Translations under genes and position numbers: made by a program | The notes under the pieces: model-generated | What the model saw: only the letters and a program-made list of their open reading frames with translations | What the model was told of the DNA's origin: nothing | Database searches by the model: none | Assembly (NCBI GenBank): GCA_026129095.1 | Contig: JAHCIT010000006.1 | Location: 44,235 to 64,234 of the forward strand | DNA length: 20,000 nt | Reading direction: 5' to 3' | DNA from: Deltaproteobacteria bacterium | Lineage (GTDB): Bacteria; JAGRBM01; JAHCIT01 | In this document: piece after piece, positions 1,136 through 10,100 of the stretch | How the letters are laid out: every line of letters starts with the position of its first letter | Numbering within the stretch: the stretch's first letter is position 1

Positions 1136-4100
1136 GCCGCTCACATCCAGGCTTAATTCATAGTCCGAGGGGGCAAAGCTGTTCCCCGGCGGAATCTGGT
1201 AGTACAGCGTGAGCGTGTAGTCCTGGTTGTCGTGGGGAACCTGGACGGTCCAGTTCCCATTCGCCTGGTCACCCGGCCCCGGAATATCCAGGATCATCCC
1301 CTCGGTGCTGTCCACGAGCTTCACGCCAACCGAGCCGGGTTCAAGCAACTGGACGTTAAGCTTCACCACCTGTCCGGCCCTGAGGCCCTGCAGGTAGAAG
1401 GTGTCTATATCGCCCCTGGCATCGAACCGGCCCGTGTATTGGGCGACCGAATCGCCAGTCGTATCCAGATTGACGACGGCACCGATGTTGTCGCCGAACG
1501 GCTCGTTGAAAATCCAGGGATCGAGCGGATCGGGATCAAGACCCTGGCACCAGGGCGTGTTGACCGGACCGTCGCACTGTCCGTCGCCGTCGCTGTCTGA
1601 CAGCGCCGGATCGGTGTAGTGCACGAACCCGGAAACAGCAGGTGGGGTGGCTGCTTTCAGTGCAGCCCCCATTTCGCCCGGATTGTCACCGCGGTGCTGC
1701 CAGTCGCCCACACCCAGCTGACCCTGGTTATTCATTCCCCAACACTTCACACGACCGTCCCGCAGTATCCCACAGCTGGTAACACCTCCTGTGGACACCA
1801 TGACCACCTCGCCATCCAGATCCACGTAGGGAAGGTTATCACCCATCTCGCCCGGACTATCGCCCCGGTTCTGTGTATCACCGATTCCGAGCTGCCCGAA
1901 GTGATTGCGGCCCCAGCATTTCACCTTGCCGTTGTCGAGGAGCGCACAGGTATGGGCACTAATTCCACTGGCGGAGATGTGGCGGGCGCGCCGGCCGGTA
2001 CCGAAATCAACATACGGCAGGCCGTCGCCCATCTCCCCGGCGTTATCACCCCGGTCATTCGTGTCGCCCTGCCCGCTGATTCCGTATGCATTGTAGCCCC
2101 AGCACTTGACCCCGCCATTATCCAGAAGCGCACAGGTATGGCCCCCACCCGCAACAATCTGAACCGCCGTCCGGCCGGTGCCGAGGTTCACAACCGGAAG
2201 ATTGTCACCCATCTCGCCGGGTCCGTCACCGCGGGAAACTCCATCTTCATAGCCCAGACGGCCCTGCATGCCGAATCCCCAGCACTTCACCGACCCATCG
2301 TCGAGAATCGCGCACGTGTGATTGTTACCCGCCGAAACCTGAACGGCGGTCCGCCCTGTCCCCAGATCAACGAATGGCAGGTTGTCACCCATCTCGCCGC
2401 CGTTGTCACCCCGATTGTTGACGTCACCCAGTCCGAGCTCGCCGGAAGAATTTATTCCCCAGCACTTCACCTGGCCACTCGCCAGGATCGCGCAGGTATG
2501 AGAACTCCCCGCATCAATGAACGTGGCCGACTGGCCTGTACCCAGGTTCGTAACCGGAAGGTTATTGCTCATCTCGCCAGGACCGTCACCCATGTGGTTG
2601 GTCGTGCCCTGCCCCAGTTCGCCACTGGTATTCCGGCCCCAGCACTTGACGCTGCCGCCCGGCCTGATGGCGCAATTATGATACCCACCGGCCGTCACCA
2701 TCTCCGATGTCGCACCGGAACCCAACAGCACGTTCGGCAGTGACGACATTTCCCCTGGGTCGTCACCACGCGGTGTGGTATCACCGTAACCGAGCTGGCC
2801 GTAAAGATTACCGCCCCAGCACCACAGGGCACCGGGCCAGTCGCTCCGGTCAGTCTCGCGGGCACAGACGTGCTCGGCTCCAATGGAAATCATCTTGCTT
2901 TCACGGAAGTCGTTTTCGGCTCCGGCGCAGGCGCCCACAGCCACGTACCCGTCGCACAGGCCGTCGCCGTCGCTGTCCGCCAGCGCCGGGTCGGACCGCC
3001 GCGAGAACTGGGCTTCACCCAGCATGACGACCAGTTCGTTGTACATCCAGTTGGCGAGCGCGAGGTCTGGCACGCCGTCGCCATTGAAGTCGGCAACGGA
3101 CACCCGGTCGAAATCATAGGAGGCCAGCTCATACTGGCGCGGGGAGATGTGGTAGTTGCCGTTCGGCAGGCCATAGGCCCCGCCCTGCTCATCCACATGA
3201 CCGTAGAACACCTGCATTCTGGTTTCGCTGCTTCCACCCGGAATAATGATGTCCAGTGCGCCGTTCTGGTCGAGATCGGCCATGGTGAACCAGGAGGGCG
3301 TCACGGCCGGGTTCAGGTCGAGATCCTGGAATCCGGTGTTGGCGAACTCGAGGGTGCCCCGGCCATTGATACCGCCCTGCATCCGTGTCTGCACCTTCTG
3401 GGAGTCGCGCATGAGACTCACGAGGTCCGGGACGAGGTCGGCATTGATGTCGGCCATCATCACATCGGCCAGCTCGTCGCTCACCGGGCGCGACTGCAGC
3501 GCGCCGAATGAATTACCCGGCTGTCCGGTACCGGCACTGCAGCCGGACACCGGCTGGACCGCGCCGCAAAGCGGCAGGGTATGGACATATCCGCTCTCGG
3601 TTTCGGGGAAGTAGATATCCTTGAGTCCGTCCCGGTTCACGTCCGCAACATACGCGAAGCCGAGCGGCTCGAAACCGCCATTATCATAGGGGGTAACCGG
3701 CGATCCCGGCCAGGAATTGAACCCCGTCGCCGTGAAGGTGCGGATCTGGCCAAGCACTCCGTAGGCCATCATGATATCCAGGTTGCTGTCGCCGTTCAGG
3801 TCAATGACACCGCCGCTCGTGATCCCGCCAGCTCCCGTGCTGTTGTGCAGCACCCCCGCCTCGAACTGCCCAACGCCCAGACAACCAGCCAATGGGCTGC
3901 TGATACCCGCGCACCCATAGAACACCTGGAACTGGCCCGCCTGGTAGAACACGACCAGATCCATGAAGCCGTCGCGGTTCATGTCGGCCATCTCGATTCC
4001 GGCCGTTGTGGATGAACCCAGGGTATATTGCGCCGGACCCGTAAACTGGCCCGTGCCATCACCGCTGTAGACGAGCATGACGTTGTTGCCGCCCGCCACC

Positions 4101-7100
4101 GCGATATCCTGCCGGCCGTCCAGATTGAAATCGCCCGTGGCCATGTATCTCGGACCGCTCAGGGCGTGGGTGCCCGTGTTGTACTGCGCGGCCATTTCGA
4201 ATTTCCCGTCCAGATTGCGGCGCACGACCTCTCCGCCGTCCGGCAACCCGTCGCCATCGGTGTCCCAAAGGTGCGGATTGATGCCGTAGTGAACCTCCCA
4301 CCCGTCCGGCAGGCCATCGCTGTCAGTATCAGACAGCGCGGGATCGGTACCTACATCGCGGAAGTTTTCCATCGTGCCGGTATTGGTCTCGGCGAAGTCG
4401 GGGTACTGGTCGCCGTCGCTGTCCGGCCCGCCGATCACAAGCCCGATCGAGGTGAACCCGGCCATTTCATCCGCCTTCACCCAGGTGAACGCCATCGTCG
4501 GACGCCCGGCCGCATCGACGGCGACGCTCACGCCATTGCCGTATTGCCAGATATTGGGGCTCACCGACTTGGTAAGCGCCCAGGTAAACCCGCCGTCATA
4601 GCTCCGGGCGAGATAGAAATCGGCTTCCTTTTCGTCCGGCACGTTTGAACGGCGCTGCTCCCAGCCGAGATAGAGCTGGTTGCGCGGTCCTACGGCAACG
4701 GAGGGGCCCCGGCTCTCGGTCTCAAGGGAGGGGGTCACCTCAATCTGGCCGGTAAAGGTGCTGCTGCATTCGTCACCAACTACCGCAAACCAGACCTCCG
4801 GTCCGTTGACGCCCACCCTGAGCCAGACAACGGCCCATCCGCCACCATTATGGAGGGCCGCAATCCTGGGTGAGGTGTGATTGGAAGCAGGATCAGCGGA
4901 AACGTCGAAAGCCGCAGTGTAGCCGCTTCCGCCATCAGTTGAGCAGGCGATTTCCACCTGGCCGTATCCGCCATAGTTGGCAACATACACAACCGCGATA
5001 TCGCCGTTTTCCGCAACAGCGATATCCGGCTGCGAGGCAGTTGACCCGCCCGAGAACCAGTAAGGCCAGCCGGTCGTAGTGAAAGACTGCCCGCGGTTAT
5101 TCGATACCTGGACCTGTATGGCATCATCGGTCCCCGTGTCGTCCACTTCGTGGAAAGCCACGGCGACGCGTGCGCCACTGGCAGCTACCGCCGGAGTATG
5201 GCCGCTCCATCCGCCCGAGTGGTTGGTCAGGTTCAGGGAGTCGAACGACTGGGCGCCATTCTGCGAGCGCAGGAACATGATGTCGTTGTCCCACGGAGAA
5301 GTGGGAGAAAGCGCCGTAAAGACCGCGTAGTAGTCGTTCAGGAAACGCGATGTGGCGGCGGCGACATCAATCTCGCCATCGGGATCATGGGAACCAACCA
5401 CATTGGCACTGAACACCACGCCGCCATTGAGCGAACGGCGGACCTGGGTCTCCGCGGGCTGCGGCACACCGGCCAGGACTTCGTGGCGCGAGAAGGCAAC
5501 GACCGGGACATCCTCTGACCTGGGCAGCCAGCGGATCACCGGATTAGTGACAACCACATTCCCGAAATACTCCAGGCTCTGCGGGCTGGCCGTCAGCGAG
5601 TAGCCGGGGAGCAACGGATCCATTCCTTCGCCAGGCAGTTCCGCCCCGTCGGGCACCAGATCCCGGTCCGAGTCCGGGTCCGTTGGGTCGGTAAAGGTTA
5701 TGTACAGCTCGTCAGAATCACTTAGCCAGTCACCATCGGTATCCGGGTTCAGCGGGTCCGTGTCCCAGCCGGATTCCGTGCCGGAGCAGATTCCGGTAAC
5801 TACCGAGCCGTCACACAGGAAGTCACCATCCGTATCCTCGTTGTTCGGATCGCTGGAGTAGCCAAGACCCACGGTATTCGCCGGGATGATCTTCACTCCC
5901 GAAGTGTCTGCGACGACCAGGTCGGCGGCTCCGTCCCCGTTGAAGTCCGCGAGCACGAAGCTCCGCGAATCGGAAGTCCCCGACAATGCATTATCGGAAA
6001 CGAGTTCACCCGTCGGACGGCCAAAGATACCTTCTCCTCTGAATATCTCGGCCTCGAATGCCACACGCCCCACAATGACGTCGGGGCGGCCATCGCCGCT
6101 CAGGTCTCCAGCGAAGATTCCCGTTGTTTCTGTAAGAGTGGGGGCCGTCCCAAGCTGGGCAACCCGCGCAAACCGTACCGGCACTCCCGGTCCTGACCCA
6201 CCCGGCTGGTAGCCAGCGGCGACGAAATGGTTGACGCCAATCTGGCCGGTGAAGAGGACGTCCGGACGGTCATTCCCGTCAAGACCGGCCACCCTGACAT
6301 GGCCATGCAACGTCATTGGCGGGTTGAAACTCGCCCCTTCCAGGAGAGTCTGGACCGGACCGAACTGCCCGGAACTGTCATTCGCAACCCACTGGAGCCT
6401 GTTCGTGCTGCCATTAACAAGCAGGATATCCTCATACCCGCCATCGTCATTCAGATCAGCCACGGCCAGCCCCAACACCTGGTCTGACAGCGAAACCGTA
6501 TGAACCGGAACCGGATCAAAGCAGTCATTCCCCGAGAAATCATAACCCAGAACAGTGATGCCAGATGCCGACGAATGAGCCACTGCGAGGCCCGGATATC
6601 CCGAAACATCAAGCTGGGAGAACAGCGCAATGTGCACCACATTATCCGGGAGGGAATTGGTTCGCATCGTTCCGAATTCGCCCTGCACGTCCGAGCTTCC
6701 CGGCCAGCACCGGAGCGTGTTCGAGTTTGTGTCGTTGACGACGATATCTTTCACAAAGTCGCCATCAATATCGGCCAGTATCATCTGGGTCGAATTCGGA
6801 CCGGCATCCATGCTGTATCCTTCAGCAAAGCCGCCGCCGGACTGCCCAAGCATCACCTGGATACGGTTGTTGGGCGTATCGTCTTCGAGCAGGACCAGAT
6901 CCAGCCGTCCGTCGGAGTCAACGTCGGTAACAGCCACGGCGTAGACATAACCGGGCCGGAAGATATCTTCCGTCTGGCCCGTATCGAACGTGCCGTCTGG
7001 CCGTCCCACGGCCTCCTCACCGTCGTAGAGGCCGTCTGCATCGGTATCCGGCTCGAAGGGATTGGTACCGGCGTTGCTGGGGCTGACCCAGGTTCCGGTC

Positions 7101-10100
7101 ATCGTCTCCGCGCCATCCTTAAGGCCGTCAAAGTCGGTGTCAGGATTGTTCGGATCGGTGCCGGTATCGAACGGTCCGTTGTAAACGCTCGTATTGGTTT
7201 CGACGCTATCCAGGAGTCCGTCCCCGTCCGAATCGGGGTTGAGCGGGTCGGTCCCCATGATGTTTTCCATATGGTCGGAAAGACCGTCGCCATCGGTATC
7301 CGGATTCCACGGATTCGTTCCATTCTGTATTTCAACGCCGTCCGGAACGGTATCGCCGTCACTGTCGCTACTGGTCGGATCGGTACCGAAAGCGATCTCC
7401 GCACTGTCGCTGAGTCCATCGCCATCCGTATCGGCATTGAGCGGGTCGGTCGTGGGAAGGATCGTTCCCACCACCGCGTAACTCGATCCGTCCGCATTTT
7501 CGCTTTCCCATGCAAGGAAGCGGCGGCCTGAACTGGACACCGCCACGGCCGGATTGTTCTGGGCCCCGGCAGTGATCTGGTTCACCTGGTATTGCGGTCC
7601 GTATGCGGTACCGGCACTGTCAAACTCGCGGGCGAAAATCCCGTAGAAATCGCCGTCGAGTCCGCCCAAATCCGCCCACAGCACGATGATCTCGTCGTCC
7701 CGGTTCATCCCGATGGCAGGCACACGCTGGAAATCGAACTCCTCGTTGTTCACGGCGAAATCCGGACTCATCGGAGTGATGCTGTCATCGAATATCCGGG
7801 CGCGGATGCCGAGGCTGGCTGCGTCGGGGCTTGTCCAGGCAACGGCAAAGTTACCCGCCGCGTTCATCGCAATGGCCGGATCATCCTGGGTCCCACCCGT
7901 GACCGAGTTGACCAAGTACATGTCCGTGTCGATCGCGCTTGACGGCAGCATCGTGCTGAGACGGATGTCGGTATCAGAGCCGTTATGCGACGAGTAGACG
8001 ATGAAGCTCAATCCCCATGAATCGACAGCCACATCCGGCTTGGTCTGCGCATTGGCAATTGTCCCGTGAACAACCACTTCGCCGGTCAATGGCGTGCCGT
8101 TCCGGTCAAACCGGCGGGCCACGACGTCCCACCCGCTGCCGCAGGTATTTTCACACTGCCACGCGACAGTGAAGTCGCCCGTCTGCCGGTGGACACCAAC
8201 CGAGGGGGCGCTCTGGTCGCCCGCAGTGGTCGCATTGACCTGGATTTCTCCGGTCTTTGGGGAACCATCGCTACCGAATACCCGCGCATAGATTCCACCC
8301 AGGTCGCCGTCCTGTCCGTCGCTCATCCATACGACGACGAAATCCCCGTCGCCCGAAACAGCCACGTCCGGCTGGCTCTGGGTACCAGCGGACGTCGAAT
8401 TGACGACGATTTCACCGCCCGTCTTCTCTCCGCTGTGCACAAGAAGCTGGGCACGGATGTCGGTCCCATCAACCCACGCGGCCACCCAGTTGCCATTCGG
8501 GCTTGCCGCCACGGACGCCAGTCCCTGGAAGCCTGCCGTCATTGTATTCACGACAAACTGCGTGCTGCCCTCTACGCCGGTGCATACCCCTGTCACCCAG
8601 GTGCCGTCACACAGACCATCGCCATCGGTGTCGGGGTTCAGCGGATCGGTACCGAGCGCCGTTTCGCTACCCGTGCAGATACCAACGACATTCAGGCCGT
8701 CGCACAGCCGGTCCCCGTCGGTATCGATATCAACGGGATTGGTCATGCGTGTCTGGCGCACGAAGACGCCGTTTCCGTCTCCGTCACGGCCGGTGGTGTC
8801 CTCAAAAACGATCACCCAGTCGCCGCCAGCAAGGTAACCAGCCTTTACCATGTCACCGGAGGCACTCGGCTGCATCATCAGGAATTCCGGGCCCACGGAC
8901 GTTCCGTTCCACTGGTAACGCTGCCCGTAAACCCTGAACATTCCGCTTCCGTCCTGGTCCCAGCTGGCCCAGGAAATCAGATAGTCCCCGCTGTTATGCT
9001 CGACAGAAACAGATGGCCGGGTCTGGTCGTACAGCGTATAGGAGTTGACCTGGTACTCACCGGCGTACGGCGAACCGTTCATGTCGAACCGGCGGGCAAA
9101 GACGCCGCTGTTCGATCCGTCCTGGTTGCCACTCGCCCAGGCAACGACAAAATCCCCCGATACTGATGTCGCCGAAATGGACGGATAGTTCTGGATATCC
9201 GCGGTGGTGGTGTTGGCCGTCAGTTCGGCGAATGCCTCGTTATTGGGCGCACTGAACCCGCGGACCCGGATATCCAGCGCATCGCCAGAATCATCCTCGA
9301 AGGCAATCGCCACCCGGCCCAGCCCGAGGGAAGCGATTGCAGGGCGCCCCTGGTTTCCGGCCGTCACGCTGTTCACCTGGAACACCGGCGCAAAAGTTGT
9401 CTGCGACGGATAGGGCTGCCAGTACCGGGCGTAAATATCAGACCCTGTATCGCATCCGTCACAGCGCCAGGCGAGTACGAACTGGCCCGTCACGCTGGTT
9501 GTTGCAATGGCCGGCTGGTAACGGCTGTTTCCGTCTGGACCTACCGCCTCGACATCGTTATCAACCGGGTTGCCAGCGGCATCAAAGCGGCGGAGCCGGA
9601 TCTGGTAAGTCCCGCTCCGGCTGTCGCTCCAGGCAACAACAAACCGGCCACTGTCGTCGACGGCTATCGTTGGCTGAATCTGGTCGCCTGTATTGGTCGA
9701 ATTAACAAGGATCTCCGTCGTTACCGGCCGGCCGGCGGAGTCGTACTTACGGGCATAAATGCCGCTCTGGTCACCGTCCGGGCCCGACCAGGCAACGACG
9801 TAACTGCCGTTACGCATGACCGCCAGCGCCGGGGCAAGCTGATGACCGGAAACAGTCTCGGTCGCAATGAAGTCCAGTTGCCGTTCCGTGCCGTTGCAAC
9901 TGCCGGTCATTTCATGCCCGTCGCACAGGCCGTCGCCATCCGTATCGGGATTGTTCGGGTCTGAACCGGGATTGCCCGGACTGATGAAAGCCAGGCTCGC
10001 ATTTTCGGCGCCGTCGAAATACCCGTCACCATCAGTATCCGGGACATTCGGATCCGTTCCGGTCATGACGGCCGAGAAATAGGTTCCGCCGTTATCTTCA

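Follow-up and report, generated by a model that had tools for sequence, protein, structure and literature searches.

Five beta-propellers at a recurrent site within TSP3-type calcium-loop units of a giant deltaproteobacterial protein

The closest described counterparts of the protein considered here are the giant adhesins of the RTX class, in which, according to the portion of the source available (PMC12077191), ligand-binding domains bud from Ig-like, beta-roll or vWFA 'split domains' and typically have adjacent termini, with AhLap, FrhA and MpIBP providing examples of such split-domain/ligand-binding-domain pairs. The stretch of DNA analysed, referred to throughout as the window, comprises 20,000 nucleotides from the genome of a Deltaproteobacteria bacterium (GenBank assembly GCA_026129095.1, contig JAHCIT010000006.1, positions 44,235 to 64,234), and encodes part of a single giant protein in which arrays of TSP3-like calcium loops are interrupted by five beta-propellers, two belonging to a CylK-like family termed VNT, two to the FG-GAP family and one to the RCC1 family. 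In each case the chain exits just past the last glutamate of a TSP3 unit and re-enters the array at a [TS][DN]P motif. Graham et al. 2024 (Proteins 92:933) is reportedly the source for the split-domain pairs named above. As far as the available portion of the RTX account allows the comparison, the likeness lies in a giant fibrillar surface protein, a sideways-projecting domain and a host element that is completed only after its passenger, whereas here a calcium-loop repeat of 22 residues serves as host, its passengers are propellers with seven blades and no RTX repeat family was matched along the frame. The display of domains from a split host is known, and what is new is the TSP3 calcium-loop repeat as that host; a full-text literature search, supplements aside, turned up no account of domains inserted within bacterial TSP3 units.

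TSP3 repeats themselves are described as abundant in giant extracellular proteins in the available parts of two reports (10.1101/2023.11.21.568195; 10.64898/2026.06.07.730766). The same PF18884 repeat is found in OmpA-family proteins, in Myxococcus CglD and in the Omnitrophota giants, which differ from the present case in that their repeats are treated, in those portions of the literature that were accessible, as contiguous calcium-binding arrays. The protein encoded by the window is not a CglD or MtsD equivalog, the respective NCBIfam models scoring 54.9 bits against a cut-off of 400 and 16.4 bits against a cut-off of 800. The type 3 repeats of thrombospondin and COMP (PF02412; PDB 1ux6, 3fby) share the DxDxDG calcium loops, but belong to another Pfam family and have another unit length. 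A sequence search of the PDB with the window's array returned no match (best expectation value, E, 0.23). We know of no inserted domains in thrombospondin or COMP type 3 repeats; eukaryotic and OmpA type 3 repeats contain a cysteine pair within the unit, like the Cys-type units described below, a feature reportedly covered by Dai et al. 2017. The sole solved chain that resembles TSP3_bac units is that of Staphylococcus aureus Bap (7c7r), which was matched over two adjacent loops with the TSP3-rich protein P0330 as query (E 7.9e-5), and which differs in that it has just two units and carries no nested domain.

The whole window (C20:44235-64234) lies within one minus-strand frame without a stop codon, and the contig-level open frame that holds it runs to 9,976 codons, or 9,976 amino acids. 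The elements of the TSP3 region, in the order in which they are encoded, are as follows (window positions, with window-protein residues in brackets).

9884..10318, minus strand: TSP3 array 1, four 31-residue units and a Cys-type unit left open after its last Glu (residues 3228-3372; TSP3_bac E 6.1e-8)
8744..9883, minus strand: VNT1 propeller, seven repeats of ~54 amino acids (residues 3373-3752)
8570..8743, minus strand: TNP return, a complete Cys-type unit and a second Cys-type unit left open (residues 3753-3810)
7451..8569, minus strand: VNT2 propeller, predicted to be seven-bladed (residues 3811-4183; AlphaFold2, Foldseek)
7013..7450, minus strand: TDP return and six TSP3 units, the last open at Glu12 (residues 4184-4329; TSP3_bac E 3.7e-24)
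5855..7012, minus strand: FG-GAP propeller 1 (residues 4330-4715; FG-GAP_3 E 8.9e-28, AlphaFold2)
5615..5854, minus strand: SDP return and three TSP3 units, the last completed (...MDP) (residues 4716-4795)
4424..5614, minus strand: BNR/sialidase-like domain, between a completed unit and a bare loop (residues 4796-5192; atlas 0.95)
4229..4423, minus strand: three TSP3 units, the first bare, the last open at Glu12 (residues 5193-5257)
2996..4228, minus strand: FG-GAP propeller 2 (residues 5258-5668; FG-GAP_3 E 3.8e-29, FG-GAP E 2e-16)
2915..2995, minus strand: SDP return and one Cys-type unit left open (residues 5669-5695)
1616..2914, minus strand: RCC1 propeller D (residues 5696-6128; RCC1_2 E 4.8e-62, WD40_RLD E 6.4e-59)
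1514..1615, minus strand: TDP return and the last, completed Cys-type unit (residues 6129-6162)

According to a motif scan, residues 3228-6135 of the window protein hold 21 TSP3-like calcium loops, in agreement with the approximately 21 units counted in an earlier reading of the DNA made without database searches (the sequence-only reading). The TSP3_bac model (PF18884) matched residues 4185-4335 with E 3.7e-24 and 84.7 bits, and residues 3220-3375 with E 6.1e-8, both matches in the gene lying over the Pfam cut-off of 25 bits. Plain units, which make up 15 of the 21, consist of DxDxDGxxDxxE, a spacer and [TS][DN]P, with three further residues separating them from the loop that follows, while the remaining six, with loops at residues 3352, 3759, 3790, 4722, 5675 and 6135, are of a Cys type with a cysteine pair, a nine-residue extension and a conserved glutamate at position 21. 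By their motif the loops are putatively calcium-binding and would stiffen the thread of the protein.

Six long gaps between successive loops were found by script. Five of these begin with a loop left open after its glutamate and end with a loop led by [DN]P, and the sixth, which holds the BNR-like domain, begins with a completed unit and ends with a bare loop, just as the sequence-only reading had it when it called this domain the exception. The ten junction coordinates given there agree exactly with the translation: the exit Glu codons lie at 9884-9886, 8570-8572, 7013-7015, 4229-4231 and 2915-2917, and the Thr or Ser codons of the respective returns at 8741-8743, 7448-7450, 5852-5854, 2993-2995 and 1613-1615. 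The statement that exit follows the unit's glutamate stands for all five propellers, with the correction that in three of them the residue is Glu21 of the Cys-type variant and not Glu12. The last unit of array 1 stops short, matching only positions 1-14 of the 22 in the TSP3_bac model, and the Cys-type unit at 2915..2995 is a single unit that closes one socket and opens the next. Given a base rate of 36% in other TSP3 proteins, the chance of at least five socket junctions in six is p = 0.027, a value to be read with the caveat that the junctions are not independent.

As an observation in its own right, the Cys-type units are concentrated beside the propellers, all six of them touching one compared with five of the 15 plain units (Fisher p 0.012), and the same habit is seen in orthologues. 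The disulfide-stapled loop may be an adapter next to propellers.

Whether the exit site lies inside a unit or between units depends on the phase in which the repeat is read. Under one alternative the natural unit would be TDPxxx-DxDxDGxxDxxE, the propellers would sit between whole units, and five junctions in six would be expected of any such array by artefact of phase or by chance. From this protein alone both phases fit, and in the alternative phase the five junctions are whole units and only the BNR-like domain lies 'inside' one. However, the 22-position Pfam model of TSP3_bac takes D1 as its first position and ends after GTDPxxx, which is the phase used in the sequence-only reading. Additionally, within the window the first array (residue 3228) and the array following the BNR-like domain (residue 5193) both start with a bare loop, and the last unit ends with DP.

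Further evidence on phase was obtained from the best 120 TSP3-rich matches, which contain 2,884 pairs of neighbouring units. Between [DN]P and D1 there is a link of three residues in 1,599 of the 2,301 pairs with that motif, while the spacer from Glu to [DN]P measures 5 (598 pairs), 6 (601), 8 (203), 9 (135), 13-14 (162) or 31-32 (119) residues; since the spacer lengths are spread and the link is mostly constant, the spacer is the unit's only length-tolerant place. The inserts of about 13 residues that the sequence-only reading had noticed at this site are likewise real, and correspond to a class with a period of 30-31 residues that accounts for 204 of the 2,884 adjacent pairs in other proteins. 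Arrays without any TSP3 upstream are led by TDP in 4 of 63 cases, compared with 101 of 197 for arrays that follow an internal domain and have TSP3 upstream (odds ratio 15.5); counted per protein the figures are 4/63 and 41/85 (p 1e-8), and a control at random positions gave 49/1,563. Since a TDP lead is rare in first arrays and common after internal domains, the motif belongs as a tail to the unit that precedes the domain and does not cap the loop that follows it.

First arrays were seldom TDP-led in two further sets also (2/15 in the VNT set and 3/43). Array ends point weakly the same way: complete ends are found in 32 of 70 terminal and 59 of 159 internal cases, a raw difference in the expected direction that is not significant (p 0.24), and per protein in 30 of 68 terminal and 19 of 81 internal cases (p 0.009). 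The alternative phase is at odds with the bare start of first arrays, seen in 59 of 63 proteins and, for the further sets, in 13 of 15 and 40 of 43. It is also at odds with proteins P0004 and P0090, where a hydrophobic N-terminal segment is immediately succeeded by a bare first loop, which leads into a propeller and then a TNP or an irregular TD...NP return. On these sequence patterns the phase-artefact explanation is largely refuted, and is regarded as highly improbable.

The identity of the passengers was examined by profile and structure comparison. FG-GAP_3 matched the two FG-GAP propellers with 97.1 and 101.5 bits (cut-off 26.9), in five stretches in each, and the AlphaFold2 model of the first is all-beta with a predicted local distance difference test (pLDDT) score mostly above 80 in the propeller part. 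RCC1 propeller D was matched by RCC1_2 with 204.8 bits in seven stretches and by WD40_RLD with 200.5 bits (cut-off 150). No Pfam family matched VNT1 or VNT2 over cut-off; the two are 36% identical to one another (BLASTP E 1.3e-47), and AlphaFold2, supplied with a 52-sequence alignment, predicts VNT2 to be a seven-bladed propeller with pLDDT above 85 over model residues 57-432. The CylK propeller (7fh8, 7fh6, 7ron) is the best structural match of this model, with a query-normalised TM score of 0.57-0.59 over its 506 residues, 7fh8 being the nearest solved fold in Foldseek (E 3e-12, 16% identity). CylK differs in being an alkylating enzyme, and nothing suggests that activity in VNT2. The VNT family is large, with 57,368 representative clusters at E <=0.001 and 8,236 at E <=1e-30 among 1.84 billion representatives; it is found in other proteins in the company of T9SS, SLH, dockerin and FN3 domains, and its only match in NCBIfam was a sub-threshold one to 'PDIAV motif-containing lipoprotein'.

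For the BNR-like domain no Pfam family passed its cut-off, and none of the BNR families was matched at E <=0.01. Its neighbours in a protein atlas are BNR_2/sialidase clusters at 0.95, which serves as a lead only, and five Asp-box-like motifs can be picked out by eye. The BNR-like domain (4424-5614) resembles VNT2 (7451-8569) over 165 residues (BLASTP E 4.6e-8), and sialidases are present among the Foldseek fold matches of VNT2; the sialidase-like propellers may include the VNT family as one of their branches. The description of the passengers as three unrelated families therefore needs qualification. It is borne out to the extent that VNT, FG-GAP and RCC1 show no significant pairwise similarity, but all are propellers, and VNT2 resembles the BNR-like domain.

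The predicted geometry of the propellers bears on how a whole domain could be accommodated at such a site. In the VNT2 model a short N-terminal strand (60-62) stands ahead of the first full blade, and the chain ends past the third strand of the last blade (420-427); judged from the repeat phase, this blade lacks its fourth strand, and the N-terminal strand fills that place. The junction is tight, with the Glu located three residues before the first strand and TDP two residues after the last strand (AlphaFold2). Entry and exit would thus be side by side, at what would otherwise be a hairpin turn, so that the short spacer could be replaced by a whole domain. FG-GAP1, as read from its sequence, opens with a motif usually found at the close of a blade and finishes with a third strand; its AlphaFold2 model has one bridge residue there.

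Orthologues of the gene were found in two genomes of the same family, one (G001; locus L011 on contig C17) with a 9,660-aa frame and the other (G002) cut by a contig end, at approximately 40% identity. The junction type of every domain is kept in both, the BNR-like exception included, and the [TS][DN]P return is kept at all but one of about 16 junctions (5/5 here, 6/7 in G001 and 5/5 in G002). G001 has four VNT propellers compared with the two found here, as a result of a segmental duplication of two propellers plus array (orthologue residues ~1440-3300).

The sequence-only reading had gone further and proposed that the E/TDP spacer is a general-purpose socket for passenger domains, to be sought in other proteins with bacterial TSP3 repeats. 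The survey did find further passengers between E and T[DN]P, namely C-type lectin, VNT and unnamed families. A total of 118 long gaps in the 120 proteins were classed by whether the upstream unit is open or complete and whether the downstream loop is [DN]P-led or bare, giving 43 open/led, 32 complete/bare, 17 complete/led and 26 open/bare (odds ratio 3.1, p 0.005), several members of the off-diagonal classes being visible errors of the regular expressions. When all the proteins collected are collapsed to 95 clusters at 40% identity, the same classes number 43, 23, 10 and 19 (odds ratio 5.2, p 4e-4). The junction type tracks the passenger family: passengers of ~212 aa are open/led in 26 of 29 cases, C-type lectins in 8 of 9 and passengers of ~101 aa in 5 of 5, whereas those of ~270 aa are mostly complete/bare (22/37), as are all three of ~400 aa (P0310). 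In P0317, for instance, Lectin_C occupies 329-425, between loops at 308 and 446, and in five proteins with unnamed passengers (~101, 212, 213 and 270 aa) Pfam gave a name to the C-type lectin alone.

Single-propeller-sized VNT regions were counted separately, 511 of them in 251 proteins, of which 446 are without a TSP3 flank. A Glu-ended loop stands just upstream of 32, and a [DN]P-led loop follows just downstream in 29 of these; among the 32 regions there is no genuine completed tail ahead of the propeller. P0440, an FG-GAP protein with TSP3 units, was considered as a further nested case and is not nested. At the level of sequence, then, the socket holds up, in its spacer, in the phase of TDP and in its other passengers, but 'general-purpose' is too wide a term given the junctions at whole units (32/118). 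The patterns support the view that the E/[TS][DN]P site is a preferred and recurrent socket, not an exclusive one.

The same protein provides a second form of insertion. With a model built from its own Ig-like repeats, three units were matched in two pieces around RCC1 propellers of 425-428 residues, as follows.

16574..17848, minus strand: RCC1 propeller A in an Ig-like domain (Ig model positions 1-43 before, 45-95 after)
13694..14977, minus strand: RCC1 propeller B in an Ig-like domain (Ig model positions 1-43 before, 47-95 after)
11441..12715, minus strand: RCC1 propeller C in an Ig-like domain (Ig model positions 1-52 before, 47-95 after)

The split matches identify these three cases unambiguously as nested insertions, and they have exactly the design of the RTX split domains, as far as the available portion of that account goes. 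Since the Ig-nested copies are 52-58% identical to the RCC1 propeller at the TSP3 site, one propeller lineage occurs in two kinds of host element. A tree of the RCC1 copies has support at 0 of 7 inner branches and gives no order for the Ig-nested and TSP3-site copies; the G001 orthologue has the TSP3-site copy only and no split Ig unit.

Taken as a whole, the data are most readily accommodated by a TSP3 thread in which five propellers are nested in the variable spacer as side branches and the two halves of each host unit re-join, and this is considered probable. The chain would leave a unit a few residues past its last Glu, build the propeller and return at [TS][DN]P, after which the array would continue in register, such that each propeller would hang sideways off the thread instead of forming part of its length. 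That the two half-units re-join physically is to be understood as presumptive. The region would form the distal, domain-bearing half of a secreted surface protein of ~9,900 residues without RTX repeats, and the propellers are presumed to be ligand-binding, lectin-like heads.

Several observations weigh against nesting with re-joined halves. The survey counts were all made by regular expressions that also catch some non-TSP3 calcium loops, in proteins that are mutually related. Counted over 43 passenger families, the two sides of a junction show no significant association (15/8/8/12, p 0.13), and the contrast between first and internal arrays falls short of significance in the smaller sets (2/15 versus 40/133, p 0.23; 3/43 versus 1/9, p 0.54). 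Junctions at whole units are common, at 32 of 118, and include propeller-sized domains (P0310) as well as the BNR-like domain. The loop that comes after one VNT propeller of G001 is bare and has no TDP, where the paralogous propeller has TNP, so that in at least one case the return motif could be dispensed with. Finally, the TSP3 flanks have pLDDT below 60 in both AlphaFold2 models (VNT2 and FG-GAP1). A complex prediction with four calcium ions, for which the chain was divided where it returns, speaks neither way (score 0.00, mark 0.32).

Some of these same observations would be expected if the repeats were flexible acidic linkers and the protein resembled beads on a string, with domains or cassettes spliced in by in-register recombination of the repeat DNA, leaving a historical footprint at the junctions but no contact between the halves. 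The TDP statistic shows only that there is an array upstream, and says nothing on contact. The copy number of the cassette differs, with two VNT propellers here and four in G001; the repeat DNA is 60-89% identical from unit to unit, providing homology for recombination; and the tracking of junction type with passenger family is as expected of cassettes that spread with their flanks. The G001 propeller without a TDP return and the unstructured flanks of the AlphaFold2 models fit such a history as well, as does an AlphaFold2 model of CglD, whose TSP3-like region is largely unstructured according to the available portion of the report (10.1101/2023.10.19.562135). Set against this, the return is kept at all but one socket junction despite ~40% identity, which suggests selection, and the exits of VNT2 are tight, with only three residues from Glu to strand and two from strand to TDP. 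The passengers identified at the site, three propeller families and the C-type lectin, are folds with adjacent termini as far as they have been modelled (VNT), and the C-type lectin fold likewise has adjacent termini. The same protein, moreover, has true nested insertion in its Ig-like domains. A recombination footprint without contact is judged unlikely, albeit a serious competitor to nesting with re-joined halves.

A bolder version of the nested arrangement may be entertained, in which the TSP3 unit is a calcium-closed clasp whose loop and TDP halves grip the base of any domain with adjacent termini, calcium governs how stiff the thread is and how the heads are posed, and the whole constitutes a portable, metal-switchable socket across bacteria and archaea for propellers, lectins and other domains. 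In this strong form the proposal is speculative and rather doubtful. Of more immediate use is a rule for reading giant TSP3-rich proteins, by which a nested domain is taken to begin at a Glu-ended loop that lacks its TDP tail and to run as far as the following TDP. Domain boundaries are corrected on this basis, and attention is drawn to several large unannotated families, the VNT propellers among them, and by analogy with the RTX split domains, as described in the available portion of that source (PMC12077191), the nested domains are likely ligand-binding heads. Should re-joining of the halves be borne out, folded domains would be displayed in nature on a very small scaffold, a unit of 22 residues.

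Outside the TSP3 region, the architecture of the gene was examined by a Pfam scan in 12 segments that together span the whole 9,976-aa frame. The order of families along the frame is Ig-like (Big_1) at the N-terminal side, followed by RCC1, TSP3, FG-GAP and NosD/beta-helix near the C-terminus; RTX nonapeptide repeats (PF00353) had no match at E <=0.01 in any of the 12 segments. Near position 50 of the frame, inspection by eye reveals three Met codons and then a hydrophobic stretch closing on a Cys, so that the start of the frame is possibly a signal-peptide-like segment with a candidate lipobox. At the other end, no sorting or secretion domain was recognised in the Pfam segments downstream of the last TSP3 unit, where the following are encoded.

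2-1513 of the window, minus strand: NosD-like parallel beta-helix (Pfam), C-terminal of the last TSP3 unit
G000:C20:41689-44234, minus strand: 848-residue C-terminal tail, with no Pfam family over cut-off

The units flanking the C-terminal RCC1 propeller are the most similar unit pair of the region, and contain a 46-nucleotide direct repeat of 89% identity (1569-1614 and 2949-2994), which may be a footprint of gene conversion or recombination. Elsewhere in the source genome (G000), three further genes are rich in TSP3-like calcium loops; none of the three has nested propellers, and their unit types differ.

G000:C1:276096-282173: further TSP3-like gene with 42 loops
G000:C12:356655-359891: further TSP3-like gene with 19 loops
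G000:C23:108227-115321: further TSP3-like gene with 9 loops

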